Notes under the pieces: model-generated
Told to the model about the DNA's origin: nothing
Seen by the model: the letters and a program-made list of their open reading frames with translations, nothing else
Database searches by the model: none
Part shown: one piece after another, positions 26,177-58,969 of the stretch
Layout: the number at the start of each line of letters is the position of its first letter
Numbering within the stretch: position 1 is the stretch's first letter
Program-made: the position numbers and the translations under genes
DNA from: an uncultured Thermoplasmata archaeon
GTDB lineage: Archaea > Thermoplasmatota > Thermoplasmata > Halarchaeoplasmatales > Halarchaeoplasmataceae
Assembly: GCA_964458595.1 (NCBI GenBank)
Contig: CAYWJQ010000005.1
Location: forward strand, 6,834-70,833
Direction of reading: 5' to 3'
DNA length: 64,000 bases

Positions 26177-26188
26177 GGAGGTCAATAG

Positions 26189-26287
26189 ACGATCAAGATT
26201 AAGAAATATGTACTTTATCGAATACAAAGGAGGAATGAAATGCTGAAAATGATCCGTGAGACCTATCATACCACGGAGCGTGGGTAA
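26189..26287 (+). CDS. Putative 32-aa small protein between the two mnhD genes (ACG start; in-frame ATG at 26240)
   Basis: GGAGGT SD at 26177-26182, 7 nt from GGAGG to ACG; frame reads TIKIKKYVLYRIQRRNEMLKMIRETYHTTERG* and stops 2 nt before the next start. Confidence 0.4.
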   Translation, partial: TIKIKKYVLYRIQRRNEMLKMIRETYHTTERG

Positions 26288-26289
26288 AA

Positions 26290-29217: not shown

Positions 29218-29227
29218 CTATCACCAT

Positions 29228-30886: not shown

Positions 30887-30895
30887 CTTTATACC

Positions 30896-31810: not shown

Positions 31811-31822
31811 ATTATCATCCCT

Positions 31823-32842
31823 TCAATCTTGGTTCACCAACCATATTATCATTATAAATCCGGCCTGAGAACCGGGTATCATAAGGCCAACGACCGCGTA
31901 CAGGAAGGGAAGTGGATTTCCTCCACCCATGCTTCCCATGAGCGACATTATAGCTATTATCACGACTAGGAAAAGCGGGAACGCGACAACGACGGTTACG
32001 AAGGATTCGGCCAACATCCCGAGAGTCTCCATGTTCTGCTGTACTTGCAGTTTTCTCTCGCTCTGGTATTCCTCCATCTTACTGGTAAAATAAGGTTTCA
32101 GTTTTCCTCCGGACGTGGAGGTCGTGACCACGCCCTGTAAGAATTCTCTGAAATTATCCGAAGGACATCTATCCGACGCCCTGTTAAGCGCGTTCAATAT
32201 GTCCATACCCAATATCTCCGTGTCCCTGGTTATCCACTTTGCCTCTTCCGAGATCTCCCCGTAAAGGGGCTGTTTGGCTAGCTCTTTAAATATCATATCT
32301 ATATTTATATTAGCCGAAGCCATAGACGCGATAAAACTCATAGCCGCGGCGAGTTTATTATCTATCTTCTTGCCTCTCCTATTGGCTTTCAACGAAGGCT
32401 GAATATTCAATCCCAGATAAGTAGCTAAAGGAGTCATCACTGCTACCGCGACTCCTACTAAAGCCCCTAATAGCCCTATGAACTGTGACATTATGATTCC
32501 GAGTACAGCACCCCCGATGATTCCACCTACAGCAGCGAGCAGAGTGCTCATCCAAACGTACGCGATATACTCTTCCACCCTTATCTTCATGTGGGCCTGT
32601 AGAAGGTTCTGTTCGAGTTCCTCGTCCTCCACGTCTCTTTTCTTTACGAATGGGCCCATGATCTTCAAACAAAATTTTTGATAGTTCGAAAGGTCGAGGT
32701 ACTCGGGAACCGTGTTCTTTGGCAGTCTTTGGACGTGCGGGCCGTACTTTTCCAGTTCTTCTCCGGCTTCCGCCCTTTTAGAAGATAGGAAGGAACTCTC
32801 CTCGAACTCGAAGCCGCTGAAGGCGTCCTGAGATTCAGGCAT
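31823..32842 (-). CDS. Type II secretion system F-family (TadC/ArlJ-like) membrane platform protein
   Basis: 'YGEISEEAKWITRD..ILG.D', 'PS..FREFLQG..T...SGG' motifs. Confidence 0.88.
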   Translation of the reverse strand: MPESQDAFSGFEFEESSFLSSKRAEAGEELEKYGPHVQRLPKNTVPEYLDLSNYQKFCLKIMGPFVKKRDVEDEELEQNLLQAHMKIRVEEYIAYVWMSTLLAAVGGIIGGAVLGIIMSQFIGLLGALVGVAVAVMTPLATYLGLNIQPSLKANRRGKKIDNKLAAAMSFIASMASANINIDMIFKELAKQPLYGEISEEAKWITRDTEILGMDILNALNRASDRCPSDNFREFLQGVVTTSTSGGKLKPYFTSKMEEYQSERKLQVQQNMETLGMLAESFVTVVVAFPLFLVVIIAIMSLMGSMGGGNPLPFLYAVVGLMIPGSQAGFIMIIWLVNQD

Positions 32843-34565
32843 CCTCTTCTTCCTCCTTCTCTCTTTCTTCTCTTATCATAGCCAAGGTTTCCTCGGGTTC
32901 TTTATAATACGAGGTCACGATCTTAGATATCTCTTTATAATCTGTCATATCTTCATCGACCATATATTCCACTATCTCGACTCTGTTTTCGAACTCGCCC
33001 ATCATCTCTTCCTGGGTCCAGTTTTTAGCCTCCATGATCTCGTCGAAGTTATAGCTGTGGCCTTTATAGCTGTAACTATCCGTCTCTCTTTCCCACTCGA
33101 AGACCGTGTTCGTTATCAATTCGTCGCTCTCCGGCTCGAAAGCCACTACCTCTGTTATCTCCTGTATCCTCCTAACCTGTTCGTCTTCTATCCTCGCGAA
33201 TTTCTGTATTATAACGAACCTGAGGGCAGTGAGCAGGACTCTAGGACAATTTATAGGTGGATTCTCGAGCCTATGCACCATCGACTGAACCGAATCGGCG
33301 TGCATAGTGCTGTACGTAACGTGGCCGGTCGCCATTGCCTGAAACATATCGTGGGCTTCTTCTCCCCTGACTTCTCCCACTATTATATAGTCCGGCCTCT
33401 GCCTCAGGGCGTTCCTCACCAGATCGTACATATTGACTTCGCCGGGGTCTTTACCCTTGCCCTGGCTCATGGTTGTACCGGCTCGAGTAGTACTGGGTAT
33501 CCAGTTCTCGTGAGGTAGATTTATCTCTCTCGTGTCTTCCAGGGAGACTATCTTAAGGCCGGGTGGGATGAACAAAGTCATGGAGTTTAACGTCGCGGTT
33601 TTACCGCACGCAGTACCTCCCGCAACGATAGATGATTTTTCGTTCTCCACCATCAACCATAGGTAAGCGACCATCTCCGCGTTGGCAGTATTGTATTTTA
33701 TCAATTTTATAGGGGTGAAAGGCTCTTTTTTGAATCGTCTGACGGTAATAGAAGAACCTCTAGTCGAGACCTCGTCCGCATAAGTTGCCTGAACTCTGTG
33801 ACCTTCGGGCGTGGTCCCGTCAAGGATGGGTGTCGAAACTGAGACCTGTTTATCGCACCTCTGGCCAAGCTTTATGATATACGAGTTGAGTCTTTCTTCG
33901 CTTTTGAATCTTACATCGGTCTTTACTGATTCATAATGCGAGTGATAGATGAAAACTGGGATATCGACTCCATCACAAGAGATGTCCTCGACGTTCTCAT
34001 CGCTCATGAGAACATCCAAAGGCCCGTATCTGATATAATCTCTTATTATGTAATACAGTACTCGCTCCTCTGTTCTCTCGTCTATATTCAGGTCTCTACT
34101 CTCAATATAACTTTTTACTGCGTCTCTGATAAACGATTCCTTGTCTTTTTTCTCCATCGTTTTCCATTCGTACGAAAGAGCTCGGTCGAGAGTGTCCTTT
34201 ATCTTCTCCATCAAGCGCTCTTCTTCTTCTGTCAGATCCGGTTCGACGGCCTGATATATGTACTCCTTTTCTTCGTCGTCGTAAAGTATCCTCGAATAAC
34301 TGTGGGGCTCTCTGACAGGGATAAGATCAACAACCTCTATCGAATCTTTTTCTATCGGTGGCAATTCCACGTATTTTGAAGTTGATCCTTCACCGGCCGA
34401 TTTCTCCTCTTTCTCTTCTTCCTCTTTTTCCTCCGCTGAAGTCACTTCTGTCTTGGGAAGTTTTACTCTCTTAGCCTTGTTAGAATCGAAGATGAACATG
34501 ATTAATAATGAAAATGGAGCGAGAAAAATCAGCGAATACAGATCATCTGAAATATGGCTGGGCAT
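32835..34565 (-). CDS. Type II/IV secretion system ATPase (PilB/ArlI-like), copy 1
   Basis: Walker A GGTACGKTA, 'LRQRPDYIIVGEVRG', 'STMHA'; hydrophobic N-terminal segment. Confidence 0.92.
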   Translation of the reverse strand: MPSHISDDLYSLIFLAPFSLLIMFIFDSNKAKRVKLPKTEVTSAEEKEEEEKEEKSAGEGSTSKYVELPPIEKDSIEVVDLIPVREPHSYSRILYDDEEKEYIYQAVEPDLTEEEERLMEKIKDTLDRALSYEWKTMEKKDKESFIRDAVKSYIESRDLNIDERTEERVLYYIIRDYIRYGPLDVLMSDENVEDISCDGVDIPVFIYHSHYESVKTDVRFKSEERLNSYIIKLGQRCDKQVSVSTPILDGTTPEGHRVQATYADEVSTRGSSITVRRFKKEPFTPIKLIKYNTANAEMVAYLWLMVENEKSSIVAGGTACGKTATLNSMTLFIPPGLKIVSLEDTREINLPHENWIPSTTRAGTTMSQGKGKDPGEVNMYDLVRNALRQRPDYIIVGEVRGEEAHDMFQAMATGHVTYSTMHADSVQSMVHRLENPPINCPRVLLTALRFVIIQKFARIEDEQVRRIQEITEVVAFEPESDELITNTVFEWERETDSYSYKGHSYNFDEIMEAKNWTQEEMMGEFENRVEIVEYMVDEDMTDYKEISKIVTSYYKEPEETLAMIREEREKEEEEDA

Positions 34566-34678
34566 CAAAGACCACTTTCCTCTTTTTATTACTCATATCG
34601 GTGTTAAAGTACTTTTCCCTAATTTTAATATGCAACCTTTTTAGTTTCTTCATTTCAATTTTGATCGAGTGAACGTCT

Positions 34679-34903: not shown

Positions 34904-35074
34904 AATGACCCTTTTTGGATATATCGCTTCATATCTTTATTTTTTACGATGGAATAACGGCTATATCCTCAAAAAATGTTGGGTTTCCGAAAAAATATTT
35001 ATAGGGGATGGTCTCATGAAAGCGGCAGTCTTGGACTCCTAATAAATATAAGACAACAAAGGAGGAACTATAAA

Positions 35075-37954
35075 ATGAAATCTGGAAAAGTTAGTAAAAT
35101 GGCTACCGTCTTGGCAGTACTGTTTTTGGTAGTGTCAGGATTGATGGTAGTCCAATGGAACGCCCAGCCTGTAGAAGCGACCGAACATGACGCCCAGACT
35201 TATACGATCGAAGGGTTTCTCGACACCGACGTGAGCGTACAGTCAGATCTGACGATAAAACTCAGAGATCTATCCAGCGGAAAGGTCATAGAAAAGCAAA
35301 CCTCCGAAGATTATTATCAATTCCCCGATGTGAAGGCGGGTTGGTATGAGATCATATTTCCCACTCAGGTGAAAGAAGATAACGCTTATTTGAAGAATAT
35401 GACCGACCCATTCAAAGTATCGGGTCAGGATAAAATACTTGATATAAATCTCAACACTAGACATCTCAATAAAACCTTACAGGGAGATATAAAGGATACG
35501 GACGGTGAACTCATAGAGAACGCCACAGTCACTGTAGAGAACAAAAATATCGGATTCAGATCCAGCCACATGGTGAAAAACAAGAGTCATTACAAGGTAA
35601 TGGTTTATCAGGGTTTCGAAGGCACGCTGAAGGTCAAAAAGGAAGGTTACGCGCCTTTTGTCAATTCTAGTGTCTCTCTAGCCGATTATGGAAGAACACA
35701 ATTCAATGTAAATTTATCCAGTAGACCCCTGATAGAGGGACACCTAGTAGATGAGAGCGGAAGCGGGATAACAGAGACATTGGACATAACATTGTATAAT
35801 CAGGAGCTCGGAGTGATGCACAGTATGAAGATGGGGCCCACTTTCAGCTACAGGGTCGCACCCGGATATGATTATACCCTGGTAGTTAAAGCGCCTGGTT
35901 ACAAACCTTTAGTCAAAGACATCAGCGCTTTGAACGAGGGTGAATACGAACAGTTCGGTAGACAGTCAGTCTCAGATTCGGGCATGGAAGAATTCCACGC
36001 AGATGTGGAGTTCAAAGGTATCGAAAACCTGACGGTCAACGCTAGCAGGACGCTCAGAACCGGCACGAAGATGAAAACGATGGATTATTCGTACATCGGA
36101 AATCTCGCCATGCAGGTGGATCTAGCTCTCGGTGACGGCGACCTCGATCTAGAAAGTGATGAGATAGATGCCTTCAAAAACAGATTGAAATACAGCGAAG
36201 CCGACATACCTTCCACTTATCAGTATATCACCACTGACGATACGGCCTATGAACTTTCGAGCTATGACATACAGTTCAGTAACATGGATAAACTGGGTGG
36301 AGACGTCAAAAGCCTGTTCGACGGAAAGATCATGGTCGACACGGAAAGGAGATACACGTCGATGAACGATGCCATGGATACCGAGGCGGAGAAATATTTG
36401 GTAGATTTCACGGTCGAACACGATGAGATGTTCGGAAACATGAGAGATTTCACTTATACGATGGACCTTCCCGAAGGTTACGAAAGGTACATCGGCAGTG
36501 GAACTGACCAGAGCATACCAGAAAACGTGACGGTAGAGAATTATACTCAACTGGAGATCGACCCGATGGAAAACGGGATGAGTTCCAAATTGACTCTAGA
36601 CGTGAGAGAATCAGAGAAAGGTCAAGCGGACATAATAGTAAATGACGAAACATGGATACATGAGAAAAAGGACGATCATTTCGTAATCAGAAAAGGTACC
36701 GAAGCAAAGCTCGAATGTGATTACACCAATCCTACCAGTCAAGCGATCGATTTCGAGTGGAGTTTCGGAGGTAACGTGATAGGCGAAGAACAAGATATCA
36801 CCCATACATTCGATGTGACCGGTACGATGGACCTTACGGTGGAAGTCGAAGAAAGTAACGGACTTACCATATCCGACGAGATAACCGTAACGGTAGACGA
36901 TGAAGGTCCACAGGGAGACCACATCAAGGTCGATAAGAAAAAGATCGGACTCCATAACATGACGAGTGTGGACGAGGATACGGAAGTCGATTTCAGCGCT
37001 ATTGATTTCGAAGATGTCGGTACGGGTCTCGTGAAAAGATACAGTTGGAACTTCAGTGATGGAAGCTCGATTCAAGAAGGTATGAACTTGACTCATACTT
37101 TCAACGATCCTGGAGAATACGTCGTAAAACTGAACTTGACCGACGGAGTCGGTAACTGGAATCGAGAAAATATCACCGTCAAAGTTGAAGATACCACGAA
37201 GCCTACAGGAGACTTCAAGATGCAGTGGGGCGAAAATGAAACGTATCAACCTCACATCAGCATAGTCAAAGGAACAGAGGTTACATTCAACGCCACGGAG
37301 ATGAAAGCTCATCCTGAATACGAAGGAGAACTGGAATACGAGTGGGAGATAAAAGACATAGGCGAAACCGGAACAGGCCCAAAGATGAGCTACACTTTCA
37401 GCGAGACAGGCGAGTATTCAGTACATCTGAACGTTACCGACAGTTCGGGCAACTACAGGAAGATAGCTAAGAACGTGACGGTGCAAAGAGGACCGACACC
37501 AGACCTGATGGTAAGCGATCTAACATTCTCTAAATCGGACCTACAGTCCGGTAAAAAGGTCACGGTAAGCGTGAATGTGACCAATGTGGGAGATGCGATA
37601 GCCGAAGACGTGACCACGACGTTGAAAGTCGATGGGAATATAGTGGATATTTCAGAAAAGTTCTATAAGAACGGCGAGGAACTCAACAGAACGACGGTGA
37701 AGAAGGGAGAAACATTGAAGATAAAGATGAAGTGGACGCCGGACAGCGATGGAAAGAAAAAAGTCAGCGTCAACGTAACGGACGGTAAAGAGCCTGGGGA
37801 TCTAGTCTTCGATAACGAGAAGCAGAAACAAGTCAATGTCAGTCCGCCGGCTTGGAGAGAATATCTTGTCTATGCGCTGATACCCATAGTCATAATCGGT
37901 GTAGTCCTAGGCCTCTACTTCTACAGAGACAGACTCAGCCAACTGCTGGGATAA
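35075..37954 (+). CDS. Large surface protein with signal peptide, carboxypeptidase-regulatory-like, PKD (about 3) and CARDB domains, and a C-terminal TM anchor
   Basis: AAAGGAGG SD before ATG 35075; PKD-like 'YSWNFSDGS..EG.N.THTF..PGEY.V.L..TD'; CARDB-like 'PDLMVSDLTFS'; C-terminal hydrophobic helix. Confidence 0.82.
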   Translation: MKSGKVSKMATVLAVLFLVVSGLMVVQWNAQPVEATEHDAQTYTIEGFLDTDVSVQSDLTIKLRDLSSGKVIEKQTSEDYYQFPDVKAGWYEIIFPTQVKEDNAYLKNMTDPFKVSGQDKILDINLNTRHLNKTLQGDIKDTDGELIENATVTVENKNIGFRSSHMVKNKSHYKVMVYQGFEGTLKVKKEGYAPFVNSSVSLADYGRTQFNVNLSSRPLIEGHLVDESGSGITETLDITLYNQELGVMHSMKMGPTFSYRVAPGYDYTLVVKAPGYKPLVKDISALNEGEYEQFGRQSVSDSGMEEFHADVEFKGIENLTVNASRTLRTGTKMKTMDYSYIGNLAMQVDLALGDGDLDLESDEIDAFKNRLKYSEADIPSTYQYITTDDTAYELSSYDIQFSNMDKLGGDVKSLFDGKIMVDTERRYTSMNDAMDTEAEKYLVDFTVEHDEMFGNMRDFTYTMDLPEGYERYIGSGTDQSIPENVTVENYTQLEIDPMENGMSSKLTLDVRESEKGQADIIVNDETWIHEKKDDHFVIRKGTEAKLECDYTNPTSQAIDFEWSFGGNVIGEEQDITHTFDVTGTMDLTVEVEESNGLTISDEITVTVDDEGPQGDHIKVDKKKIGLHNMTSVDEDTEVDFSAIDFEDVGTGLVKRYSWNFSDGSSIQEGMNLTHTFNDPGEYVVKLNLTDGVGNWNRENITVKVEDTTKPTGDFKMQWGENETYQPHISIVKGTEVTFNATEMKAHPEYEGELEYEWEIKDIGETGTGPKMSYTFSETGEYSVHLNVTDSSGNYRKIAKNVTVQRGPTPDLMVSDLTFSKSDLQSGKKVTVSVNVTNVGDAIAEDVTTTLKVDGNIVDISEKFYKNGEELNRTTVKKGETLKIKMKWTPDSDGKKKVSVNVTDGKEPGDLVFDNEKQKQVNVSPPAWREYLVYALIPIVIIGVVLGLYFYRDRLSQLLG

Positions 37955-43495: not shown

Positions 43496-44572
43496 TCAGG
43501 AATCCGATCCTTCCTCTTTCTTTTCCAATCTTTTTTCTTTTTTCTTGAGAGCTCCCTTTTTACCGTCTAATCTGCTCTTTAACTCCTTGAGTTCCTCCTC
43601 TTTATCGTCCAATTCCGATTCCCGTTCCTTCAGATCCTCTCTTCTTTTGGCGACCTCTATCTCTTTCTCTTCCAAACCCCTCAGTTTCTTTTCGATCTTC
43701 TCTTCTTTCTCTTCTATCTCATCTTTCTTCTTTTCCACTTCTTTTTCCGTCTCCTCTATCTCGGCCTCTCTTCGATCTCGTCTGCGTTGTCTTTCTTCCA
43801 TTTTTTCTCTCTCGGCTTCTATCTCGTTTTTTATCTTTTCTTTTTCCTCTTTTGCTTTCTCTATCTCAGCGAGTTTCGAATCTAAGCGCCTTTCCCTTTT
43901 CCCGATACTCTCCCTTATGCGTTCTAGATTGTCTTCCTTTTTTTCCAACTCTTTTTCCCGTTCTTTTATCTTCTCTTCCTTTTCTTCCAACCCCTTTTCC
44001 TTCTTTTCTAACCGCTTCTTAGTCTCTTCCAGTTCTTTCCTCCCTCTTTCTATTTCGGTCCTTTTGCCCTCCGGTCCTTTTCTTTCATCTATCAATCCTT
44101 TTATCGTCTCCAGCGCTTCCTCGCTTAACTCCCCGTCCGAGGTGATCTTTTCTTCATCTTCAGAGGGCGATTCGATATCTACTTCCTTTTCCCGATCTAA
44201 AAGAAAGTCCATATCCCCTTCGATCCCAGGGGAGTCTATCTTAGATAAGACTTGATCTATCAAGACAGAAGAGGTCGAGTGAGAGTACGTATAGAGTTCT
44301 AGAAAGGCCTTTTCCGAAAAAGAATAGTCTCTGATCTCAGTGATAGCTTTTTTTCCTTCAAACTTCTCGGTCTCGCTTTTCAATTCGGCAGCCCTGGGTT
44401 CAGAACCCTTAAAAACGATCATCCCGTCGATTCTAGACCTATCCTCTATGAAGACTAATTTGAGATAGCCGTCCATAGATCTATCTTCCACGATCTCGAC
44501 AATGTTTTCAAAGGCTTCTTTTCCTCCTCTCGACGAGAGCACTCTTTTACCGGGCGGGACTTCCATCTCCAA
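43496..44572 (-). CDS. DUF2226-like N-terminal domain plus long Glu/Lys coiled coil
   Basis: 'DGYLKL....G.IVF..G...AA' N-domain followed by about 190 aa of heptad-rich E/K/R sequence. Confidence 0.6.
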   Translation of the reverse strand: MEMEVPPGKRVLSSRGGKEAFENIVEIVEDRSMDGYLKLVFIEDRSRIDGMIVFKGSEPRAAELKSETEKFEGKKAITEIRDYSFSEKAFLELYTYSHSTSSVLIDQVLSKIDSPGIEGDMDFLLDREKEVDIESPSEDEEKITSDGELSEEALETIKGLIDERKGPEGKRTEIERGRKELEETKKRLEKKEKGLEEKEEKIKEREKELEKKEDNLERIRESIGKRERRLDSKLAEIEKAKEEKEKIKNEIEAEREKMEERQRRRDRREAEIEETEKEVEKKKDEIEEKEEKIEKKLRGLEEKEIEVAKRREDLKERESELDDKEEELKELKSRLDGKKGALKKKEKRLEKKEEGSDS

Positions 44573-44643: not shown

Positions 44644-47106
44644 TCACATGGAGATAGGTATATTCTCCATCTCTCTCTTCACTTTTTCGGCTTTTTGTTC
44701 CGCCCCGCTTTTCGACAGTGAAAGAACCGCCTTTCGATAATTTTCAGCGAGAGCCTCGGGGTCGTCTTTCTTTTCGTGAACCTTCGCCATGGAAAAGTAT
44801 GTCAGACCTAACTGGTACTGCTGCCCTAGTTCCTTGTATAATGATATCGCTCTACTCAGGTGATCTTCCGCTTCCACTTCCCTTTCGGTCTCCAGATATG
44901 CCTTTCCCAGGAGTGCCTCAGTGAAAGCTCTCTCTCTTTTGTCTTCGGAGAGTACGGATTCCATGGCATCTTCCGCTGACTTTATCGCTTTCTCGTAGCT
45001 TTCGTTCTCCATGTGACATTCGGCCAGCGATAAAAGCGCGGCGGTCTTCAGATCTTCATATTCACCCTGTATCGGGCCCGCTCGATCTGTGTGGAACTGA
45101 GTTCTGAATCTTATCTCCGCATCCTCTAACTCTTTGAGGACTTCATAGAGTGTCCCAGTCTCTCTTTTTCCACTTATCGGCCCGTGTGACTCATCTAATC
45201 TACTCCAAAATTTAAGTCCCATCTTGAATGGTTCTATCGCCTCTCCTTCCTTACCGCGTTCTTTTTCCATCCTAGCCAAGATGAAGTACGAGGACGTGAG
45301 AAGATGATGATCTTCCCCGTGAACCAGCGTCTCTATGGCCTTTTCAAGATCTTTTTTAGCTTTCTCGTAGTCGTCATTCTTGTTCCAGATCTCACCTCTC
45401 CTCGCGTATATCCTTCCGAGTTGGTCTTCCTTTTCGGGATCATCTTCCAAAGTTTTCGCTATCTCTTCGGCCCGATTCAGATTGTGTATGGCCCTATCAT
45501 ACCTTCCAAGTTTTTCCTCCACTTTGCCTAGACCCAGATATGCACGGAGCTCCCATCTTTTGTCTTCGGTTTCGGTCAGCATCTCTTCATATCTCTGTCT
45601 GCTGTCCTCGTATTCGTGATCCACTCTCATCGCTTCGGCCTCATAAAAATCGAAAAGAGCGCCCTTTTCTTCGTCGCCGAGTTCCGCTAGCATATCCAGC
45701 AGAACTCTGCTGTAACCGTCGGAGACGATCATCGAACCGTGATCCTCTAGAAGATTTTCGGCTTTCTTTATTTCGCCTGACATGACAAGGTGATAAAGTC
45801 TTTCGAGTATCTCTCTAGTGGATGGCTCGATCCTTTCTTCATAATATTTAGACGCGAGTCCCTGGAGGTCTTTTTCTGCGGTTTTTGATAAACCGTCAAG
45901 CTTCCTCTTTCGGATCTCTGTAGGTATAGTTATCTTATCTCCTTCGGTTTCCCAGACCAGAGGCGTCTCTAAAATCTCCTCGATGTCTTCTTCCGCTATA
46001 GGGCCAAGTCTCGCTAGTTCATGGCTTTCGACCGGTTTCCTAAAGATGGATAGATAACTCAGGGTTAGAGAAACTTCCAAGTTTAACTCCCTAGTAAGTA
46101 CATCGCTAAAGTCACTCTTTCCGTAACGCTCTTGAACTCTTTTCCGCAGCGGAGAAAATCCGTCAGCATTAAGAAAAGAAGCCTCCTCGATATGTACTCC
46201 GTCTTGGTCTTCTTCAAAATCCATCAAAGTTCGCACGTGCTGAAAATTTAAGGTCTCTTCTGATATCTTTAAGATTATATCTCGAAGTTCCGATCCTTCA
46301 TCTATACCGTCGAATATAAGAAGGGCCGAAGTATATTTGAGATCGCTCTTTAATTTCTCTAAAGCGGTCCTCGGATTCAGCCATTCTGCAAAATCACGGT
46401 AAGTTGATAGATTTATCTTGCCTATACCCTGTAAAAAGTCAGAAAAGGCGTCCCAGAGATCAATGGGGCGTTTATGTTTTTCTACCCTGAAATAGAATAT
46501 ATTGGTGGTTTCTTTCAAAGTCTCGAGAAAAGCCGCTATATGATAAGGCGATATATCTCTTACAAGGGCAGGGTCTTCACCGTTCCGGTACCAGTCTTTT
46601 AGAATCGATATATCGAGTTTTTCGGAATCATCAAATGATAGAAGTTCCGATCTATATGAGATGGGCGAACCCTTCTCTCCTCCGACTCTTATCTTTATTC
46701 CGCCCTCCTCTCGCTTTAGGACTATATCTATAAGATCCTGATCTTTCGGGACGTATTCATCGACGTTCTTAACCAGGACTTCCCTTTCTTCGCCGTACAT
46801 GTCCAAGGTGACAGAAGATTCCCTCATCTCTTTTCGCTTCTTCTTGGCCTTTTTCAGGCCTTCTTCGGTTAGAAAATAGGTCTTCATCCTCTGCTCTTTT
46901 CCCCGGACCCTGCTGACTTTTTCTTTCACGTGTCCAGAATCGTTCAGACCGTTCAGCGCATACGATATCGTGTTCTGTCGGAGGTCGAGACGATCGGACA
47001 TACCGCCCTGCGTGACCTCCACCGGCTGAGTATAATCATCTTTAGAGTTTTGATAACCTAAAAGATGGACCAATATCTTATCCTTCGCTTTGAAAGAACC
47101 GCTCAT
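44644..47106 (-). CDS. wHTH + degenerate STAND-type NTPase + TPR protein
   Basis: N-terminal HTH ('TQGGMSDRLDLRQNTISYAL..L...G...KTYFLTEEG'); Walker B-like LLIFDG but no P-loop; C-terminal TPR repeats. Confidence 0.72.
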   Translation of the reverse strand: MSGSFKAKDKILVHLLGYQNSKDDYTQPVEVTQGGMSDRLDLRQNTISYALNGLNDSGHVKEKVSRVRGKEQRMKTYFLTEEGLKKAKKKRKEMRESSVTLDMYGEEREVLVKNVDEYVPKDQDLIDIVLKREEGGIKIRVGGEKGSPISYRSELLSFDDSEKLDISILKDWYRNGEDPALVRDISPYHIAAFLETLKETTNIFYFRVEKHKRPIDLWDAFSDFLQGIGKINLSTYRDFAEWLNPRTALEKLKSDLKYTSALLIFDGIDEGSELRDIILKISEETLNFQHVRTLMDFEEDQDGVHIEEASFLNADGFSPLRKRVQERYGKSDFSDVLTRELNLEVSLTLSYLSIFRKPVESHELARLGPIAEEDIEEILETPLVWETEGDKITIPTEIRKRKLDGLSKTAEKDLQGLASKYYEERIEPSTREILERLYHLVMSGEIKKAENLLEDHGSMIVSDGYSRVLLDMLAELGDEEKGALFDFYEAEAMRVDHEYEDSRQRYEEMLTETEDKRWELRAYLGLGKVEEKLGRYDRAIHNLNRAEEIAKTLEDDPEKEDQLGRIYARRGEIWNKNDDYEKAKKDLEKAIETLVHGEDHHLLTSSYFILARMEKERGKEGEAIEPFKMGLKFWSRLDESHGPISGKRETGTLYEVLKELEDAEIRFRTQFHTDRAGPIQGEYEDLKTAALLSLAECHMENESYEKAIKSAEDAMESVLSEDKRERAFTEALLGKAYLETEREVEAEDHLSRAISLYKELGQQYQLGLTYFSMAKVHEKKDDPEALAENYRKAVLSLSKSGAEQKAEKVKREMENIPISM

Positions 47107-47226
47107 CAGTGAACTTATAAAATATTCGAACCCATATTTGAAGGTTGTTGATGATTAACGGCTCGAGAAAAAATCGAGATAGGGGTAAAGAATCGTTTTT
47201 TGACCGGACTGGTGATTCTCATCGAT

Positions 47227-47463
47227 TCACCGATCACTTTCATTTACCACCTTAATCTCTAGATTGGATTCCTTTTCGAGAGCCTGCTCACCTTCGGGAG
47301 GATCGGTAACTTTTACGTAAGAGAGGGTTATGGTCTGTTTAAGGACATTGACACCTTCCGTTGAGCTGTGAGTTTTGACGGAAATAGGTTTCCATCCAGA
47401 CCCTATAGATCTGGTCAACTCGAGGAGGGGGGAACTCCCGTTTTCACTTTTTCCTTTTTGCAT
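47227..47463 (-). CDS. Small hypothetical protein, copy A (paralog of 48861-49094)
   Basis: About 45 of 77 positions identical to copy B by hand alignment; visible differences in the shared core are mostly third-position, indicating a real coding sequence. Confidence 0.8.
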   Translation of the reverse strand: MQKGKSENGSSPLLELTRSIGSGWKPISVKTHSSTEGVNVLKQTITLSYVKVTDPPEGEQALEKESNLEIKVVNESDR

Positions 47464-47492
47464 ATTATCTAAGTTGATTTGTGTCTTCTTCG

Positions 47493-47539
47493 GATTTAAA
47501 CCGAATCCCGTTTTATCAATTTTGATAACTAGATATCAA
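47493..47539 (-). promoter_or_regulatory. TATA box (TTTAAA) with upstream palindromic operator TTATCAA-N2-TTGATAA, copy 1
   Basis: TTTAAA at 47495-47500, 32 nt above the ATG; palindrome at 47513-47528; extra TATCAA half-site at 47534-47539. Confidence 0.65.
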
Positions 47540-47770
47540 ATATCTCGGAGTCATTTATCGAAGATCGGTCTGATGATCACTATTTTACAATGCCCAAACG
47601 AGCTATCTCATGACCGTTTGTTATCTCAAAAAAGACGAGACATCGATCGGTTTTATTCATCGTTTGAAAAGCCAAGAAAAGGTATAAATATTCGAAAGAC
47701 GCATGATATACCGATATCTGCTTCTGCTAAAGAAAGATGAACCTTCCCTAAAATTGGACAACGAGGGTAT

Positions 47771-48814
47771 ATGATCATGACGGGAACTGGCTCTAACTCG
47801 GAAGAAGACTTCTTTTATAACCGTATCGCTAGAGCCATAATCCCGGCCGGAGAACAGACGGAAACCGGCGAAAAATACTATGAAGACATCGATTGGACGT
47901 CGATGAAGATAAAGCTCACGGAGAAAGATCTGATATACGAAAAAAGAGGTAAAAAAGGATCGATCAGAGTGGACGACATATATTATATCGATAGGGTTTT
48001 TCAACATCCAAAGGCCGATTCTCCTAAAGTTTTGAGCTTCAATTATCAGACCGACGAGGGCGATTTCGTAGCGTTGATCAGAAACAGGACTACGAGGTCG
48101 AAAGAGATCCTCAAAAAAAGACTACTCAGACAGATAATAAAAGACGCAAACATATGGTACATCTCACCTCGAAGTGTCGGGAGCGAGACTTCGATAAATC
48201 AGGGCTGGAACGAAGGGATTTTCAAGATCGGTGCGAAAAACACTTTGAGGATCGAAGATACCGACGGAGAAATAGTCACCACCATACCTCCGGAAGACGT
48301 CATCCGATTGAATCCCATAACCAAGCGGAAAAGAGTCAACCTAAAGATATTTTACTGGAGAGAAGGGGAAGTTCAAGTCGATCTCGTTTATTCGACCGAG
48401 ATACCCCTCGAATTGGTCACCGATTTCTTCTACAGCGATTATCTAGAGGAGGAGAAAAGAAAAAGAGAAAAACAAAAAGATCTCTCTATCGATGAGATGA
48501 AAATATTGAAGGCCTTGAAGGAGAAAGAGGAAGAAAAAGAGGATTCGTCGGTGACTACACCCGAAGAAGAATTCCTTTCCGAGCTTCCGATAGAAGCTGA
48601 GAAAGGGAGAGAGGTCCTATCCTCCTTAGAATCCGAAGAACTGGTCTGCCGGAGAGGTTCTAAAGTTTTCAGAACATTCAAGGGCGTCGAGAGCACACCG
48701 GAGGAGATAGAAGAAGAAGAGGAAGATGAGGATAGGAAGGAACTGAAGAAGAAAGCCGAGAAACTTAAGAAAAGGTTGAAAACTCTTAAAGCCATGAAAG
48801 AAAAGAGTCAGTAG
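47771..48814 (+). CDS. CheF-like (DUF439-type) protein with C-terminal wHTH-like region
   Basis: Two PH-like halves ('WTSMKIKLTEKDLI'; 'YISPRSVGS.....GWNEGIFKI') resemble archaeal CheF motifs; C-terminal 'LSIDEMKILKAL...EVLSSLESEELV' is helical. Confidence 0.55.
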   Translation: MIMTGTGSNSEEDFFYNRIARAIIPAGEQTETGEKYYEDIDWTSMKIKLTEKDLIYEKRGKKGSIRVDDIYYIDRVFQHPKADSPKVLSFNYQTDEGDFVALIRNRTTRSKEILKKRLLRQIIKDANIWYISPRSVGSETSINQGWNEGIFKIGAKNTLRIEDTDGEIVTTIPPEDVIRLNPITKRKRVNLKIFYWREGEVQVDLVYSTEIPLELVTDFFYSDYLEEEKRKREKQKDLSIDEMKILKALKEKEEEKEDSSVTTPEEEFLSELPIEAEKGREVLSSLESEELVCRRGSKVFRTFKGVESTPEEIEEEEEDEDRKELKKKAEKLKKRLKTLKAMKEKSQ

Positions 48815-48860
48815 GAAAGTAAGGGTGCGAAAAGGACCGATAAAAAGATATTTTGGTATC

Positions 48861-49094
48861 TCATCGATCCTCGCTGAAAACCCTTACTTGTAGATTCGAT
48901 CGCTTGTTGAGATCTTCTTCGCCTTCAGGGGGATCGTCTACCTTGACATAGGAAAGGGTGATGGTCTGTTGAAGAACGTTACTCCCTTCTCTATACCTGT
49001 TGGTTTCCACCGAAATAGGTTTCCATCCAGAACCTAAAAATTTTGTCAATTCGAAAAGAGAAGACCCGTCTTCTATACTTTCGCTTTCCACCAT
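48861..49094 (-). CDS. Small hypothetical protein, copy B (paralog of 47227-47463)
   Basis: Shares GSGWKPISV, QTITLSYVKV and DPPEGE with copy A. Confidence 0.8.
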   Translation of the reverse strand: MVESESIEDGSSLFELTKFLGSGWKPISVETNRYREGSNVLQQTITLSYVKVDDPPEGEEDLNKRSNLQVRVFSEDR

Positions 49095-49123
49095 GTTATC
49101 GTATACTGTTTGTGCTCTTTTAA

Positions 49124-49170
49124 GATTTAAACCGAACCCTGTTTTATCAATTTTGATAACTAGATATCAA
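49124..49170 (-). promoter_or_regulatory. TATA box with palindromic operator TTATCAA-N2-TTGATAA, copy 2
   Basis: GATTTAAACCGAA at 49124-49136; palindrome at 49144-49159. Confidence 0.65.
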
Positions 49171-49287
49171 TTCCTTCTCGATCTGATGGATAATATATTA
49201 ACGATCGATATCTCGAGACGATATCAAATGTTCGAAAGATATTATTAACAGTGCTTTCGTTTTGATGTAAGGAAGGGGAAGGGTACC

Positions 49288-54164: not shown

Positions 54165-56840
54165 TCATCTCCCGCCCATCTTCTTCAGTATTGAATCCAA
54201 CATATCTTCGGCATTCTTTTTCGCGTGTTCGTCGTCTCTCTCTCCCGCTCTCTTTTTGAGTTTTTCGAGCAGATCTTTAGCCCTCTCGTAATCGCCGGTC
54301 TCCCGATAGATACGGGCTTCCTCGAATTCGCAGGCGTTCACTCCTCCGATCATGTTCTCTTCTTTCAAAGTCTCTTTGAGATCTTTAAGTTCCTCTAGAG
54401 CTTTTTCAGGTCTTCCGCTGTCGTGAAGATCGAATGCGTACTTCAACCTGGCCCTGTAAGACTTTTCGTCCTCTTTGAGATCTGAATAGCCTTTCACGGA
54501 TTTCATCCTATGGTTCAAACATCCTTTCTGATCTTTTCCTTTCAGCACATCCGCGAGTCTATCGTGGGCCTTGACTTCCAAAGAAGTCATCTCGTCTTTT
54601 CCGAAGAACCCACTGCGGCGGTCCTCCTCTATCTCTATCGCTCTCTTGAGGTCCTCGGCCGCTCTTTCTTCATAACCCATCTCTACTTGAAGATCGGCGC
54701 TTTCGATCAATAGTTCCACGGCATCGCTCTTCCTATCCTTCTCTAGATTACTTTCGACGGCCTTCTCGAGATTATCGAGTGAGCTCCCAAGATCACCTTT
54801 CCTTTCGTACAGGAGAGAAAGGTTCTCGTATATTATCGGTCTTTCCCCGCCCCGGTCCAGCGCCTTTTCGAAAAGTTCTTTGGCCTTATCCAATTCATTC
54901 CTGGTTAGGCTCAGCATCGCCATGTTGTTGTACAGGGTCGGCTCTACCTCGGTCGAGCGTTTTTCTTCTAGCTTATCTTTGACTCTCTCATAGTATCTCT
55001 CAGCTTCATCTAGATCTCCCTTCTTCCTATATACAGTTCCAAGGCTCAGATATTCCCGGATCATGCTTTCCTGATCACCCTTTTCCCGATATCTTTCAAG
55101 GGCGCTCTCGTGAGACTCTATGGTCTCCTTCCACCTTTCCATCTTCATCTGTGCCTCTCCCAACTTTTCTCTGATAGCGGTCGTGTCCTTCCCGCTCTGT
55201 ACAGCTCGTTCGTATCTTTGTAGAGCTTTTTCCCAATCCTCGGATTCTAGATATATATCGCCCAACACTTCGTAGAATTCGGGACTTTTCTCTTCCGGTA
55301 TCTCCGGCATATCTTCTATTATCTCCCGACGGACGTGTTCGTTCAAGGAACCTATCAGCGGAACTAGTTCCTCCATCTTCTCCAGACTCTTCTTCCAATC
55401 ACCGGATTTTTCGAGGTGACGGAGTTCTTCAAGACCTTCGCCTTTCATCCTTTCCGCCGCTTTACGATGGAGTTCCTGCTTTTCCTCTATCGACATATGC
55501 TCATAGAAGAAATCCTTCAAGATCGAATGTATAGTTACTTTACCTTCCCTCGTCTCGGTCACAAGATCGCGATCCTTGAGATCCAGCAGTAGATCGGACT
55601 CCCCCTCCTCGAGAACAGTTTCCTTCTCGACAGGATCCCAGAATACAGATAATCTTCTCATTATCTCCTTTTCTTTCTCTTCCAGTTCCGAATATATCTC
55701 CTTCTCGATGAATTCGTTCATATGGGACGTCTCACCTTTATATCTGCTTGAAAGCTCAACGTAGAGTGGATGTCCCTCCGTGATATCATAAACATTCTCC
55801 GCTTCCTCTCTATCTCCGACGATCTTTTCAACCGCCTCTATATCTAGAGCCCCCAGTTCCAACTCTTGAACGTGATCCTCCATCACATCCCTGACATCAT
55901 AGAAGTCCATCTTTTTTCTGCCCATCAGGATCAGAGCAAGTTCTTCGCCGGTCTTCTTTTGCTCCAATACGATCTCAAAGAAGACCTTCAACTCTTCGGG
56001 CATCTTTTCGCAGTCGTCAAAGAACAGGACGGGTCTCAGATCCGAGATCCTCTGGATGAATCTGTTTGTCACTTTTGGGAGAGGTGCATCGGTATCTAAA
56101 GAGTCGAGACCGCCTCTCACGCAGAAATCGCTGAGAAGCTCGACAAAACTCTCGACGCCGTCCCAGGGATGAAAACTGTACCAGAGGATATCTCTATCCA
56201 GTTCCTCCATCACCATCGTTCCCAAGCTGCTTTTTCCTATGCCCGCGATCCCGGTGATCGTGATTATAGGCGGGACCTCCTCTTTTAGAGATGATATGAT
56301 CTTATCTTTCTCTTCATCTCTCCCATAAAATTCTCCTTTAACAGGTGCATTCATGACCATCTCGACCTTCTCTTTTTCCTGCCCCTCGATGAGTGCCGGT
56401 TCGAACTCTTCGGGATCTAGAACTTCTTTCTTCCTCATCCATTCTTCGATATCGAAAGGGGTGATATCCGGATGGTCTTTTTCCAAGAGTTCTACAGCAC
56501 CACCGATCGTGATCTTCTTTCGCGTCTTTTCCTGTATCGATATCTCTTCTCGTTCCAACTCCCTTTCGAGGTCTTGCGCCGCCTTTTGCCCCTGATCGGT
56601 CAAAAAATATATCTTCCTCCTGCGGTCCATGTCCTTCACTCTAGAGAGTTCCTCTTTCACGAGGGCTTCATCTTTCAGTGTCGAAAGCTCCCTGCTGACA
56701 TTGTTCTTCAGCATATCTAGTGCGTCACTGATGCCGTCCTGGCAGAGGAAGTACGGAGCTATGTATTCCTCCTGATAATCGACCTTCTTCAGTAAAAGGA
56801 GGATGCGCTCCCTATGTGTCAACAGCCCACTTTTTCCCAT
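54165..56840 (-). CDS. wHTH + STAND (NB-ARC/MalT-like) NTPase + TPR protein
   Basis: N-terminal HTH; Walker A GIAGIGKS; Walker B VLFFDD; GxP motif 'TEGHPL'; MHD-like 'IHSILKDF'; multiple TPRs. Confidence 0.85.
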   Translation of the reverse strand: MGKSGLLTHRERILLLLKKVDYQEEYIAPYFLCQDGISDALDMLKNNVSRELSTLKDEALVKEELSRVKDMDRRRKIYFLTDQGQKAAQDLERELEREEISIQEKTRKKITIGGAVELLEKDHPDITPFDIEEWMRKKEVLDPEEFEPALIEGQEKEKVEMVMNAPVKGEFYGRDEEKDKIISSLKEEVPPIITITGIAGIGKSSLGTMVMEELDRDILWYSFHPWDGVESFVELLSDFCVRGGLDSLDTDAPLPKVTNRFIQRISDLRPVLFFDDCEKMPEELKVFFEIVLEQKKTGEELALILMGRKKMDFYDVRDVMEDHVQELELGALDIEAVEKIVGDREEAENVYDITEGHPLYVELSSRYKGETSHMNEFIEKEIYSELEEKEKEIMRRLSVFWDPVEKETVLEEGESDLLLDLKDRDLVTETREGKVTIHSILKDFFYEHMSIEEKQELHRKAAERMKGEGLEELRHLEKSGDWKKSLEKMEELVPLIGSLNEHVRREIIEDMPEIPEEKSPEFYEVLGDIYLESEDWEKALQRYERAVQSGKDTTAIREKLGEAQMKMERWKETIESHESALERYREKGDQESMIREYLSLGTVYRKKGDLDEAERYYERVKDKLEEKRSTEVEPTLYNNMAMLSLTRNELDKAKELFEKALDRGGERPIIYENLSLLYERKGDLGSSLDNLEKAVESNLEKDRKSDAVELLIESADLQVEMGYEERAAEDLKRAIEIEEDRRSGFFGKDEMTSLEVKAHDRLADVLKGKDQKGCLNHRMKSVKGYSDLKEDEKSYRARLKYAFDLHDSGRPEKALEELKDLKETLKEENMIGGVNACEFEEARIYRETGDYERAKDLLEKLKKRAGERDDEHAKKNAEDMLDSILKKMGGR

Positions 56841-56955
56841 ACATGGAGGACATGTGTTCTTTATTATTTATATCTTTGATAGTTTGATAGATCGAGTGAT
56901 AGAATCGTTATACACCTTTATATCCGATGAAAGAGAAGTTTATGATGTGATAAAG

Positions 56956-58473
56956 ATGAAAACGAAAATGTTAATGACCTTACTGGTCGTCGGGCTGCTC
57001 GCGGTCGGTTCGATATTCACTTTTGGGATGGCGACCGCGCAGAACGAAGACGGCCAATGGAAGGTAAAAAAAGAAGAAGGAACTACGGAGAAGTTCGGCG
57101 GGGGACACTACAGGTACTTCAAATTCTCTAACGGGTCGGGAGACCACGATGCGATGTTCGGAGTCATCTGGGGTAACGAGGACACTCCGAATTCTATAGT
57201 GATGGTCTCGACTCAGGCGAGATATCTTGCTCAGGTACAGGTAAGGATGCAGGATTCACATGGAGGTCAGGGAGGACACGGGCAGCATGACGGACAAAGA
57301 TCGCAGGTACAGGAACGACAGTTCGTCAAGATGAACTCTATGCTGGCCACTTCCATAGGAAGGATATACGAGTATAACGACAGCAACGAGAACGGAGTCG
57401 TAAACCTCCAGATGAACGAAGACGGTAGTATATCTTCCGAACTGGAAGACGTCTACAAATACGTCGATCTTCGAAACGCCACTTGGTCGTCGAGCGAAGT
57501 GACGAAAACCCAGAAAGGAGACAACACCACGTGGGAATTCACCTTGACAGCGGAAGACCTGCCCTATAAACCGGTAGGGGAGAGTTTATCGCCGGGGATG
57601 GAACAGGAAGTTTTAGAATACGTGAACTTCACTTTCCACTTGACGGCTGGAACTAGAGAGGTCGATGGTGCAAAGATGCCCTCGTTCGATGTCGAAGTCA
57701 GAGAAGGTTCCGGCGGCAGGATGAGGATGCGGGAAGCTGACAGGAACGGCACAGCAAAAGTGAGCGGATTGGTCGGAGATTTCAGCATGAAATGGGATCA
57801 CGAATTTCAAGGCTGGGATTTCGAGGAAGAAAACCAGAACCCGAGGCTTGTGATGGGGTTCAGGAACATGTTCGGAAATCAGATCCCAACAGAAGAACAC
57901 AGGTGGCACTGGAGATTCATGCACCAGAAACAGGAAAGAGAGGGGGCACATTTCAGAGATCAGCAGGGAGAACACTCGACAAACTTCAGCGAGCCCACTC
58001 AATTTAGGGAGAGACAGTTGAAACAGAACAGGATAAATTACGGTGGCGAATGGTCTAGGGCCGGCATGTTCCGCTGGCAGTCCAACGTTTCTATCGAAGG
58101 AAAACAGGACAAGATGACGGCACAGCTAATATTTGGAGCACCGATGATGCATTCGGGACCTATGGGTAGAGATTTCGTCGGTTTCCAGGTTTGGGGCGGA
58201 TTGAACTATCCCGGAGGACAGAACATCTACCATGATCCTGCACAGTCCGGCAGTGCTTTCCTACAGATAAGCGAAAACAGTGGCGAGATCGACGGAAGCT
58301 TGTTGACACCCCTAATGGGTAAGGTTCTTGTGATCACTATAAGCGGCCTAGCGATAGTGGCGGGAGTCCTACTGTACAGGAAAAGAGGTAACGACGGACC
58401 TAAGAACAGGTACGATAAGAAGGAACCCAGTGAAGAAGAAAACTGGTCGGACTACTACGATCGAGAGCGATGA
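56956..58473 (+). CDS. Hypothetical secreted, C-terminally membrane-anchored protein
   Basis: Signal peptide ending ATA, DxNxNG loop, Gln/Gly/His-rich inserts and C-terminal TM followed by RKR; start trimmed to MKTKML. Confidence 0.72.
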   Translation: MKTKMLMTLLVVGLLAVGSIFTFGMATAQNEDGQWKVKKEEGTTEKFGGGHYRYFKFSNGSGDHDAMFGVIWGNEDTPNSIVMVSTQARYLAQVQVRMQDSHGGQGGHGQHDGQRSQVQERQFVKMNSMLATSIGRIYEYNDSNENGVVNLQMNEDGSISSELEDVYKYVDLRNATWSSSEVTKTQKGDNTTWEFTLTAEDLPYKPVGESLSPGMEQEVLEYVNFTFHLTAGTREVDGAKMPSFDVEVREGSGGRMRMREADRNGTAKVSGLVGDFSMKWDHEFQGWDFEEENQNPRLVMGFRNMFGNQIPTEEHRWHWRFMHQKQEREGAHFRDQQGEHSTNFSEPTQFRERQLKQNRINYGGEWSRAGMFRWQSNVSIEGKQDKMTAQLIFGAPMMHSGPMGRDFVGFQVWGGLNYPGGQNIYHDPAQSGSAFLQISENSGEIDGSLLTPLMGKVLVITISGLAIVAGVLLYRKRGNDGPKNRYDKKEPSEEENWSDYYDRER

Positions 58474-58567: not shown

Positions 58568-58969
58568 TTACTCCTCTTTCTTCTTGAAAAACAACCAGTT
58601 CTCGGGCTCTTCTTCCGGTTTGAACCTTATCAGTACATATTTTCCTTCCAGTCTTTCACCCCGTATATCCATGACGATCTTGTTCTCCTCCCACTCCACG
58701 ATCTCATACGTTCCTTCATCCCATAATTCGACTTCTCCAGCTCCATATTTTCCCTCTTCTATCTCTCCCTCGAAAGAGGCGTAATCGAGTGGATGATCTT
58801 CCGTTTCTATGGCGAGTCTCTTGTCCGATGGATCTTCAGATGGACCTTTAGGGATGGCCCAGCTTTTCAACACCCCATCTTTTTTTAGACGGAGATCGTA
58901 ATGAAAAGAACTAGCGTCGTGTTTCTGGATGGAATATATCCTCTCTCCTTCATCGCTGGAGTTAGCCAT
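58568..58969 (-). CDS. Stand-alone LigD-type 3'-phosphoesterase (PE domain)
   Basis: 'IQKHDA...HYDLRL', '[36 protein letters not shown]' signature. Confidence 0.93.

Follow-up and report, generated by a model that had tools for sequence, protein, structure and literature searches.

What kind of unit is formed when two direct repeats, each carrying a small gene and its upstream DNA, bracket a CheF-like gene? The question arises from a 64,000-nt stretch of an uncultured Thermoplasmata archaeon (assembly GCA_964458595.1, contig CAYWJQ010000005.1, positions 6,834 to 70,833), the whole of which we refer to as the window. An initial annotation, made from the sequence alone, had proposed that these genes and the adjacent STAND-TPR and coiled-coil genes make up an undescribed, co-regulated signalling cassette. 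We found that the repeats stem from an old duplication, maintained by selection, of a small-protein gene together with its promoter, that this promoter carries a putative 28-bp operator, and that the surrounding gene neighbourhood recurs in related genomes, where it hints at a link with the archaellum.

The repeats themselves are much as first described, namely two units of about 320 bp, 1631 bp apart, each with an open reading frame (ORF) of 77-78 aa. The one long direct repeat reported by a repeat finder between 45000 and 51500 pairs 47249-47539 with 48880-49170 (291 nt without gaps, 71% identity, starts 1631 nt apart), and with the remaining ORF sequence included each unit measures about 313 nt (47227-47539 and 48861-49170). 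The two encoded proteins are 58% identical globally, as had been estimated, and 67% identical over 72 aa (BLASTP, E 3e-32). Identity between copies A and B is distributed by zone, with 89% from the operator to the TATA box, 65% in the coding sequence and 49% farther upstream, in agreement with the earlier remark that the upstream DNA is better conserved than the coding DNA. A comparison of substitution rates, which had been suggested as a check, gave a proportion of synonymous differences (pS) of 0.72, a proportion of nonsynonymous differences (pN) of 0.24 and a dN/dS of 0.13 for copy A versus copy B (Nei-Gojobori); selection is purifying, not neutral, and both ORFs are genuine genes. Among 9 small-gene copies compared by the same method, pN ranged from 0.07 to 0.36, pS from 0.52 to 0.97 and dN/dS, where dS was computable, from 0.08 to 0.27. 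The protein is conserved although its synonymous sites are saturated, from which it follows that the ORFs are translated and that the duplication is ancient. The lone small gene of the single-copy loci L004, L012 and L039 occupies the position of copy B; copy A, with the CheF-like gene on one side and the TPR gene on the other, is therefore probably the derived duplicate, and it has also diverged further. A neighbour-joining tree of the small proteins, in which copy A forms a long branch, did not settle whether copy A and its counterpart in locus L008 (L008a) are orthologous. A tandem duplication of the small gene in locus L001 is independent of the one in the window. The repeat also gives rise, as by-products, to two antisense ORFs (47375-47740 and 49000-49248).

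Upstream of both start codons we found two stretches in which the copies are identical, one of 30 nt (TTGATATCTAGTTATCAAAATTGATAAAAC) and one of 13 nt (TTCGGTTTAAATC) containing TTTAAAT, the same two blocks that had been noticed at the outset. Nine copies of this region were aligned and those of L020 and L039 were read additionally, and all 11 copies, from 8 assemblies, display one layout: TTGATA-N5-TTATC-N4-TTGATAAA, 11 nt, TTTA[A/T]AT and, 1-3 nt ahead of the ATG, a GATA(A) box. The operator half-sites, invariant in 11/11 copies, are GATA-type and helically phased, and their orientation is mixed (TTGATA > N5 < TTATC N4 > TTGATAAA). Together, the three upstream boxes make up two palindromes that overlap, their half-sites spaced 10-11 bp apart, and the direct TTGATA boxes lie 20 bp apart. 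With a position weight matrix of the 28-nt operator, the 11 sites score 39-45 of 45.9 bits, compared with 12.9 bits for the next best site in about 220 kb; a 27-nt operator pattern has two occurrences in the window, where 0.02 would be expected, and clusters of GATAA or TGATAA cores are found only at small-gene promoters. Since the centre of the TATA box lies about 34 nt before the ATG, the small-gene transcript is probably leaderless or nearly so. In the TPR-proximal A copies an extra half-site stands about 20 nt upstream of the operator (TTGATA in L008a, L008 9905-9930; CGATAA in copy A of the window, 47540-47570), keeping the two-turn periodicity. Phased half-sites in mixed orientation would suit a cooperative oligomer, and the multiple phased half-sites recall the MalT boxes. 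Archaeal activators typically bind just upstream of the TFB-recognition element (BRE), where EarA uses four 6-bp boxes (PMC5512572); the three boxes here are 6-7 bp long and end 11 nt upstream of the TATA box.

A duplicated segment that brackets a gene, next to a STAND-like TPR protein, could also be an assembly artefact, the remnant of a mobile element or a piece of STAND-type anti-virus defence. An artefact we exclude, as the copies are only 71% identical, differing at 29% of their bases, and an independently assembled metagenome-assembled genome (MAG), that of locus L008 (contig CAZPCW010000004.1), repeats the five-gene layout with both copies and with proteins 64-81% identical to those of the window; the possibility that the repeat was an assembly error, raised in the initial annotation, did not hold. 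There is no transposase, integrase or terminal inverted repeat to support a mobile element, and the flanks are chromosomal housekeeping genes. As for defence, PADLOC returned generic TPR and coiled-coil noise (JetC/LmuB, E>=6.6e-6) and PHROGs gave nothing more, while a search of IMG/VR with the operator pattern retrieved 17 viral contigs, on which neither the small gene nor any other cassette protein is encoded. Taken as a group, these explanations are very improbable.

The operator was looked for at the CheF-like and TPR promoters and is not present there. CheF-like genes have a common promoter of their own (…AAA-GGTATAAATATTC) and so have TPR genes (CAACAACCTTCAAATA-GGG), both different from the small-gene operator, and a T-run that is likely an archaeal terminator separates copy A from the promoter of the TPR gene. 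The cassette is therefore neither one operon nor co-regulated through one shared site. Thus, of the co-regulated cassette initially envisaged, the recurrent, undescribed neighbourhood of small, CheF-like, TPR and coiled-coil genes stands, and co-regulation of the whole is not supported, with the operator restricted to the small genes and separate promoters elsewhere. A scan for sigma-70 promoters and intrinsic terminators was uninformative for an archaeon. The features of the window are collected in the table.

Table. Features of the cassette, followed by other features of the window (positions count from the first letter of the window)
Feature	Positions	Strand	Remarks
Small gene, copy A	47227-47463	(-)	78 aa; adjoins TPR gene; 125 bits against the family hidden Markov model (HMM)
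Small gene, copy B	48861-49094	(-)	77 aa; convergent with CheF-like gene
Promoter of copy A	47464-47539	(-)	putative operator TTGATATCTAGTTATCAAAATTGATAAA at 47512-47539; TATA box TTTAAAT at 47494-47500; GATAA box directly before ATG at 47463
Promoter of copy B	49095-49170	(-)	putative operator at 49143-49170; TATA box at 49125-49131; GATAAC before ATG
CheF-like gene	47771-48814	(+)	347 aa; between the repeats; Pfam CheF-arch PF04283
BRE/TATA of CheF-like gene	47681-47694	(+)	GGTATAAATATTCG; conserved among CheF-like genes of 6 loci; unrelated to small-gene operator
TPR-gene promoter element	47131-47150	(-)	CAACAACCTTCAAATATGGG; common to TPR genes of 4 loci
T-run after copy A	47161-47175	(-)	GATTTTTTCTCGAGC
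820-aa regulator-like protein (TPR gene)	44644-47106	(-)	predicted N-terminal winged helix, STAND-type nucleotide-binding oligomerisation domain (NOD) without Walker A, C-terminal TPR repeats
Coiled-coil protein	43496-44572	(-)	358 aa from TTG start; ATG at 44566 fits orthologs better
891-aa STAND gene	54165-56840	(-)	
556-aa ORF	56803-58473	(+)	no Pfam match; overlaps 5' end of 891-aa STAND gene by 38 nt
Archaeal type IV pilus locus	28384-34568	(-)	
PKD/CARDB surface protein	34976-37954	(+)	992 aa; beside type IV pilus locus
Proton_antipo_M subunit genes	24593-27861	(+)	two, tandem; 527 and 523 aa
LigD 3'-phosphoesterase domain protein	58568-58969	(-)	133 aa; stand-alone

Looking for the same neighbourhood in related MAGs, as had been proposed, we found it repeatedly among Thermoplasmata loci. 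The window and L008 share an identical order of small gene B, CheF-like gene on the opposite strand, small gene A, TPR gene and coiled-coil gene, and in L008 the order continues past the coiled coil with a dihydrolipoamide dehydrogenase gene. Locus L004 (GCA_964462425.1) reads archaellin, small gene, CheF-like gene, TPR gene and two archaellins and is accompanied by arlF/G-like, ArlH, ArlI and ArlJ genes; L038 (GCA_019594125.1) reads CheF-like gene (cut by the contig end), TPR gene and three archaellins. Shorter versions consist of a TPR gene (cut), a CheF-like gene and a small gene in L039 (GCA_964632835.1), a small and a CheF-like gene in L012, and a small, a TPR and a coiled-coil gene in L020. 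In L001 (GCA_964602715.1), CheW and two large PAS proteins, one of them a response-regulator hybrid, precede two small genes, the TPR gene and the coiled-coil gene, and the CheF-like gene is elsewhere. Finally, in the genome of L011 and L017 (GCA_964394465.1) a small gene stands alone, flanked by a DHH phosphoesterase gene and a transporter gene; a pair of TPR paralogs, more distantly related, lies about 10 kb away. The most constant link is that between the small gene and the TPR gene: as far as the contigs reach, the latter adjoins small genes, CheF-like genes or both, with the exception of L011. Of the 9 loci listed here, 6 have the CheF-like gene. Overall, the cluster is confined to some uncultured Thermoplasmata archaea of one lineage.

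The small-protein family is correspondingly tiny, with about 12 sequences, all from uncultured Thermoplasmata. A word-indexed search of 5.8 billion proteins returned 6 members, and an HMM search of 1.84 billion cluster representatives returned 4 family members along with two giant cadherin/Calx-beta repeat proteins, which we judged to be spurious, repeat-driven artefacts. The genome matches are all MAGs named 'uncultured Thermoplasmata archaeon', one further match being a Joint Genome Institute (JGI) metagenome contig, and no extra or degenerate copies came to light when the window and every fetched locus were searched in six frames with the family HMM. The profile searches suggested for this protein yielded no known family: there was no family match in Pfam, NCBIfam, PHROGs or PADLOC, and no match in the PDB by sequence or profile search. 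A resemblance to DUF4177-type proteins had been proposed and was not borne out; the two have in common only a short G-W-x-x-[IV]-S-V string, none of 7 members matched the DUF4177 profile at E<=10 (hmmscan), and an AlphaFold2 (AF2) model of the small protein is all-beta. This monomer model (predicted local distance difference test, pLDDT, 71.5; alignment of 7 sequences) is built of a long hairpin (residues 24-36 and 40-51) with two more strands at its flanks. Foldseek found no fold match for it in the PDB (best E 2.6), and the long-hairpin proteins that it returned at this level, such as pore-forming toxins and FliF, were judged meaningless. The protein is conserved over its full length. Its N-terminus (first ~12 residues) is polar and acidic in all members, with no signal peptide or hydrophobic segment, and its core (residues 12-53) is basic in 10/13 members (isoelectric point, pI, 9.4-11.1) with acidic tails on both sides; the cores of copy B and of the L020 protein are near-neutral or acidic. 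The median pI of the window proteome is 4.83 (27 proteins). In the explanation that we find best, the small protein would be a cytoplasmic beta-hairpin protein.

Such a protein might itself be a DNA-binding, beta-sheet autoregulator binding the GATA-type half-sites of its own promoter or promoters, and perhaps an archaellin promoter, with the TPR, CheF-like and coiled-coil genes upstream of it or incidental. Restriction of the full operator to small-gene promoters is a classic autoregulation signature, the basic core stands out from the acidic proteome, the fourth GATA(A) box at the start codon or presumed transcription start has a repressor-type position, and in L011 the small gene and its operator occur by themselves, without a regulator next to them. 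Yet the protein bears no likeness to DNA-binding families in Pfam or among PDB sequences and has no PDB fold match, two members lack the basic core, and the three main half-sites lie upstream of BRE/TATA, an unusual place for autorepression. On balance, we consider autoregulation by the small protein unlikely.

A stronger candidate for the binding factor is the product of the adjacent TPR gene. The 820-aa protein matches TPR_12 (E 4.5e-22) and TPR_MalT (E 3e-7), and weakly AfsR. Its winged helix is weakly supported in Pfam (TFIIE_alpha 0.0026, PadR 0.005, MarR_2 0.015), and the N-terminal helix-turn-helix (…QNTISYAL…) is almost invariant. Residues ~150-450 are colinear with STAND paralogs that carry AAA_22, AAA_14 or AAA_16 matches. 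In an alignment with 13 relatives, the Walker A motif GxxxxGK[ST] is absent from 6/6 members of the 820-aa clade, which have a 4-residue deletion (DIS----PYH) at the site where the paralogs, to which the clade aligns end to end, keep GPAGSGKT, GKEGAGKT, GEYGTGKT or GIAGIGKS. Consistently, no AAA or NB-ARC family of Pfam matched the whole protein at E<=1 or residues 151-400 at E<=10. By these comparisons the 820-aa protein is a STAND-derived regulator that has lost its P-loop; the initial description of a STAND-TPR gene was right as to descent and repeats, and it needs amending as to the Walker A loop and the missing AAA/NB-ARC match. With the motif deleted in every one of the six, oligomerisation of the classical ATP-driven sort is unlikely. 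The module order of DNA-binding domain, NOD and TPR sensor, the NOD homology and the weak TPR_MalT and AfsR matches are shared with MalT/AfsR-type STAND regulators, from which the clade differs in the deleted Walker A, in having its DNA-binding domain as an N-terminal winged helix and in being archaeal.

A related protein with an intact site is encoded in the window as well. It is an 891-aa protein of winged helix-turn-helix (wHTH), NOD and TPR architecture with the Walker A motif GIAGIGKS and AAA_16/AAA_22 matches; its winged helix is 39% identical to that of the 820-aa protein over 87 aa, and it is a natural comparator with P-loop in the same genome. Its gene overlaps a 556-aa ORF (table), and one start codon of this pair is probably mis-set. 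More distant relatives of the 820-aa protein (30-37% identity) form tandem wHTH-NOD-TPR pairs at L017 8001-13099 and L019 8001-13167, in each of which one gene has a degenerate or no canonical P-loop and the other has AAA or NB-ARC matches. The L019 pair adjoins a DHH phosphoesterase gene, and the same kind of gene adjoins the small gene in L011.

In 5 genomes the gene with helix-turn-helix (HTH) and TPR modules directly adjoins a small, separately transcribed ORF, an arrangement that is reminiscent, by analogy and not by homology, of the RRNPP systems of Firmicutes. The TPR protein could accordingly be a receptor and the small protein its ligand, either a quorum-like signal or an intracellular anti-activator. 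TPR domains bind peptides, and a lost P-loop points to control by a non-nucleotide ligand. However, the small protein has neither a signal peptide nor a hydrophobic N-terminus, it is conserved throughout as a folded beta protein of 75-78 aa, unlike a short mature peptide, no exporter or processing gene is linked, and the receptor has a NOD module and an archaeal host. We regard such a receptor-ligand pair as quite improbable.

The gene that follows the TPR gene in 4 genomes encodes the coiled-coil protein, with a conserved ~115-aa N-terminal domain that is DUF2226-like. Scores are borderline: the isolated domain reaches 22.1 bits against PF09987 (cut-off 22), and DUF2226 is matched by 3/4 orthologs, with E 2e-4 and 2.4e-3 among the orthologs and one without a match. 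One ortholog gives a weak DUF4388 match (E 0.094). The likeness to DUF2226 and DUF4388/PATAN-like families concerns these N-terminal ~115 aa, and the long KE-rich coiled coil lies outside the DUF2226 family model. In the library of papers that was searched, DUF2226 is not mentioned.

Between the repeats and on the opposite strand, as first noted, lies the CheF-like gene, whose product scores 36.8 bits against PF04283 (37.9 bits for residues 1-235; cut-off 25). The match is partial, spanning residues 33-180 and profile positions 15-166 of 218, and PF04283 is precomputed for 4 of 9 CheF-like homologs. Canonical CheF, an adaptor between CheY-P and the archaellar switch ArlCDE (arCOG02394), consists of two PH-like domains and a C-terminal tail domain (dimeric) that binds CheY-P (PMC9126983). 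An AF2 model of the 347-aa protein (pLDDT 56 overall) contains a PH-like domain at ~20-122 (pLDDT ~80) that matches PH domains with a Foldseek probability of 1.0, a second beta-rich region (125-235) at pLDDT <50, and a C-terminus of three helices and a beta-hairpin (wHTH-like, 240-301) followed by a long helix (310-346). The CheF structures 7OD9 and 7OVP were not among the top 50 Foldseek matches of this low-confidence model, and a PDB sequence search gave no match. The protein thus shares with CheF a Pfam score above threshold, a PH-like N-terminal domain (PMC9126983) and, in L004 and L038, archaellin neighbours; it differs in the low-scoring partial match, the lack of a PDB sequence match and the modelled C-terminus. 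Judged by its profile match, it is a divergent CheF family member, which does not imply CheY binding. The gene had been called an orphan. This is true of the window and does not extend to L004 and L038, where it stands beside TPR and archaellin genes, with the arlF-J operon alongside in L004. Several CheF-like paralogs occur per genome, some of them far from che and arl genes. One such paralog (P0016, L015 1826-9239) has a response-regulator/PAS/GAF hybrid histidine kinase on either side, close to a KaiC-like ATPase (PF06745 and DUF7125) and a single-domain response regulator, and may with these neighbours form a separate signalling unit.

Is the cassette, then, linked to motility? Genes for cheF are often found beside archaellum loci, and archaellum regulators, including EarA, are encoded in or next to them (PMC4858521); likewise CsmR of Haloferax is a lineage-specific archaellum regulator encoded beside archaellin genes (PMC13286277). 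The cassette abuts archaellin genes in L004 and L038, with arlF/G/H/I/J alongside in L004, and follows CheW and sensor kinases in L001. Moreover, the best non-self matches to the operator's 17-nt palindrome (TTATCAAAATTGATTTA, 16.8 bits) lie at L004 14779-14795 and L038 4840-4856, about 55-70 nt upstream of orthologous archaellin genes, and share the operator's 14-nt core; 0.35 matches at this score are expected by chance in all the sequence searched. Both lie within a ~85-nt block that is near-identical between the two loci (L004 14740-14852, L038 4801-4913), whose TPR proteins are just 68% identical. The block contains repeated TTATCAAAA boxes, the second one upstream, CGATAATC downstream and a ATATATATA TATA box, and it ends in GATTATCATG, as small-gene promoters do. 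As a cis link between the cassette and the archaellum this operator-like site is suggestive and not conclusive, because it represents one independent event.

These observations bear on the alternative that the cassette is a regulatory module unrelated to motility, with a CheF-like protein that serves as a PH-domain scaffold and a coincidental adjacency to archaellin and che genes in three genomes. Only housekeeping neighbours are seen in the window, L008, L020 and L011, CheF-like paralogs occur in non-motility contexts (L013), and the PF04283 match is partial and weak for a true CheF. Against this stand the placement of the cassette against archaellins in L004 and L038 and after CheW in L001, the operator core shared by one archaellin promoter, and the CheF-like paralog between hybrid kinases, near the KaiC-like ATPase and the response regulator. 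A role outside motility appears rather unlikely to us.

Our preferred reading, held at slightly less than even confidence, is that the cassette is a motility-linked, lineage-specific regulatory module that controls the archaellum. A sequence-specific factor would bind the phased half-sites cooperatively just upstream of BRE/TATA. This factor would most plausibly be the wHTH-NOD-TPR protein encoded next door, working as an oligomer that needs no nucleotide. What makes it the best candidate is that its gene is a constant neighbour, that it has a DNA-binding module, that its oligomerising scaffold would suit phased sites and that it is encoded beside archaellin genes. Through this factor the small-protein genes and at least one archaellin gene would be switched on; the small protein, basic in its core and acidic in its tails, would serve as effector or feedback partner, acting for instance on the TPR sensor or the CheF-like adaptor. 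We infer the identity of the operator-binding protein, activation over repression, and the partner and role of the small protein. Several points weigh against this module. Nothing ties the operator to the TPR winged helix over the CheF-like C-terminus, the small protein or an unlinked factor, and the Pfam matches of the winged helix are weak (E 0.003-0.1). The archaellin-promoter match is partial, comprising one palindrome with the third half-site degenerate, in addition to being a single event for which 0.35 chance matches are expected. There is no archaellum or che gene in the 64-kb window or the 20-kb L008 locus; in L001 the CheF-like gene lies elsewhere, among housekeeping genes, and in L011 the small gene has only a distant TPR paralog ~10 kb off. 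The small-protein model, too, is of moderate confidence and has no fold match. A more specific version, in which the P-loop-less wHTH/TPR regulator reads the phased GATA-type operator and co-activates archaellins together with one or two copies of a new 75-78-aa beta-hairpin protein that feeds back on the TPR sensor or the divergent CheF, seems doubtful, though not negligible.

A type IV pilus locus of archaeal type does occur in the window, with two PilB3-like T2SSE ATPases, two split T2SSF (TadC-like) genes and a DUF7289 pilin-like gene; it is not an archaellum locus. Elsewhere the window contains two paralogous antiporter-like subunit genes (Mrp/Nuo-type) and a LigD-type phosphoesterase (table), and an Rfam scan of the window found no RNA family. 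The window proteome is strongly acidic at a G+C content of 44.6%, which suggests that this Thermoplasmata lineage is salt-adapted.

Comparison with the known archaellum regulators EarA (Methanococcus, Pyrococcus), CsmR (Haloferax) and ArnR (Sulfolobales) reveals a common theme, regulator genes beside archaellins, and several differences. None of the five cassette proteins or their sub-domains matched the EarA family PF07381, none resembles the 13-kDa Lrp-like CsmR, and the strongest operator copies are here at small genes, not at archaellin genes. The parts of the cassette and their combination are not in Pfam, the PDB, PADLOC or PHROGs, nor described in the motility literature consulted, although a transcription factor with a dedicated target and signalling adaptors is a familiar kind of system.

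Control of the building and switching of the archaellum is known for few lineages (ArnR and ArnA/B, EarA and, recently, CsmR), each with unrelated parts, and we found nothing reported in the literature on archaellum control in Thermoplasmata. Within the limits of a family confined to few uncultured MAGs, whose function is inferred, the locus offers as candidates a 28-bp operator, a P-loop-less STAND regulator beside archaellins, a divergent CheF and a small-protein family under strong purifying selection. A STAND clade with a deleted Walker A also bears on how such switches may work without a nucleotide. If the proposed circuit of regulator, archaellins and beta-hairpin protein were true, it would be a Thermoplasmata functional counterpart of EarA, CsmR or ArnR, built from different parts.

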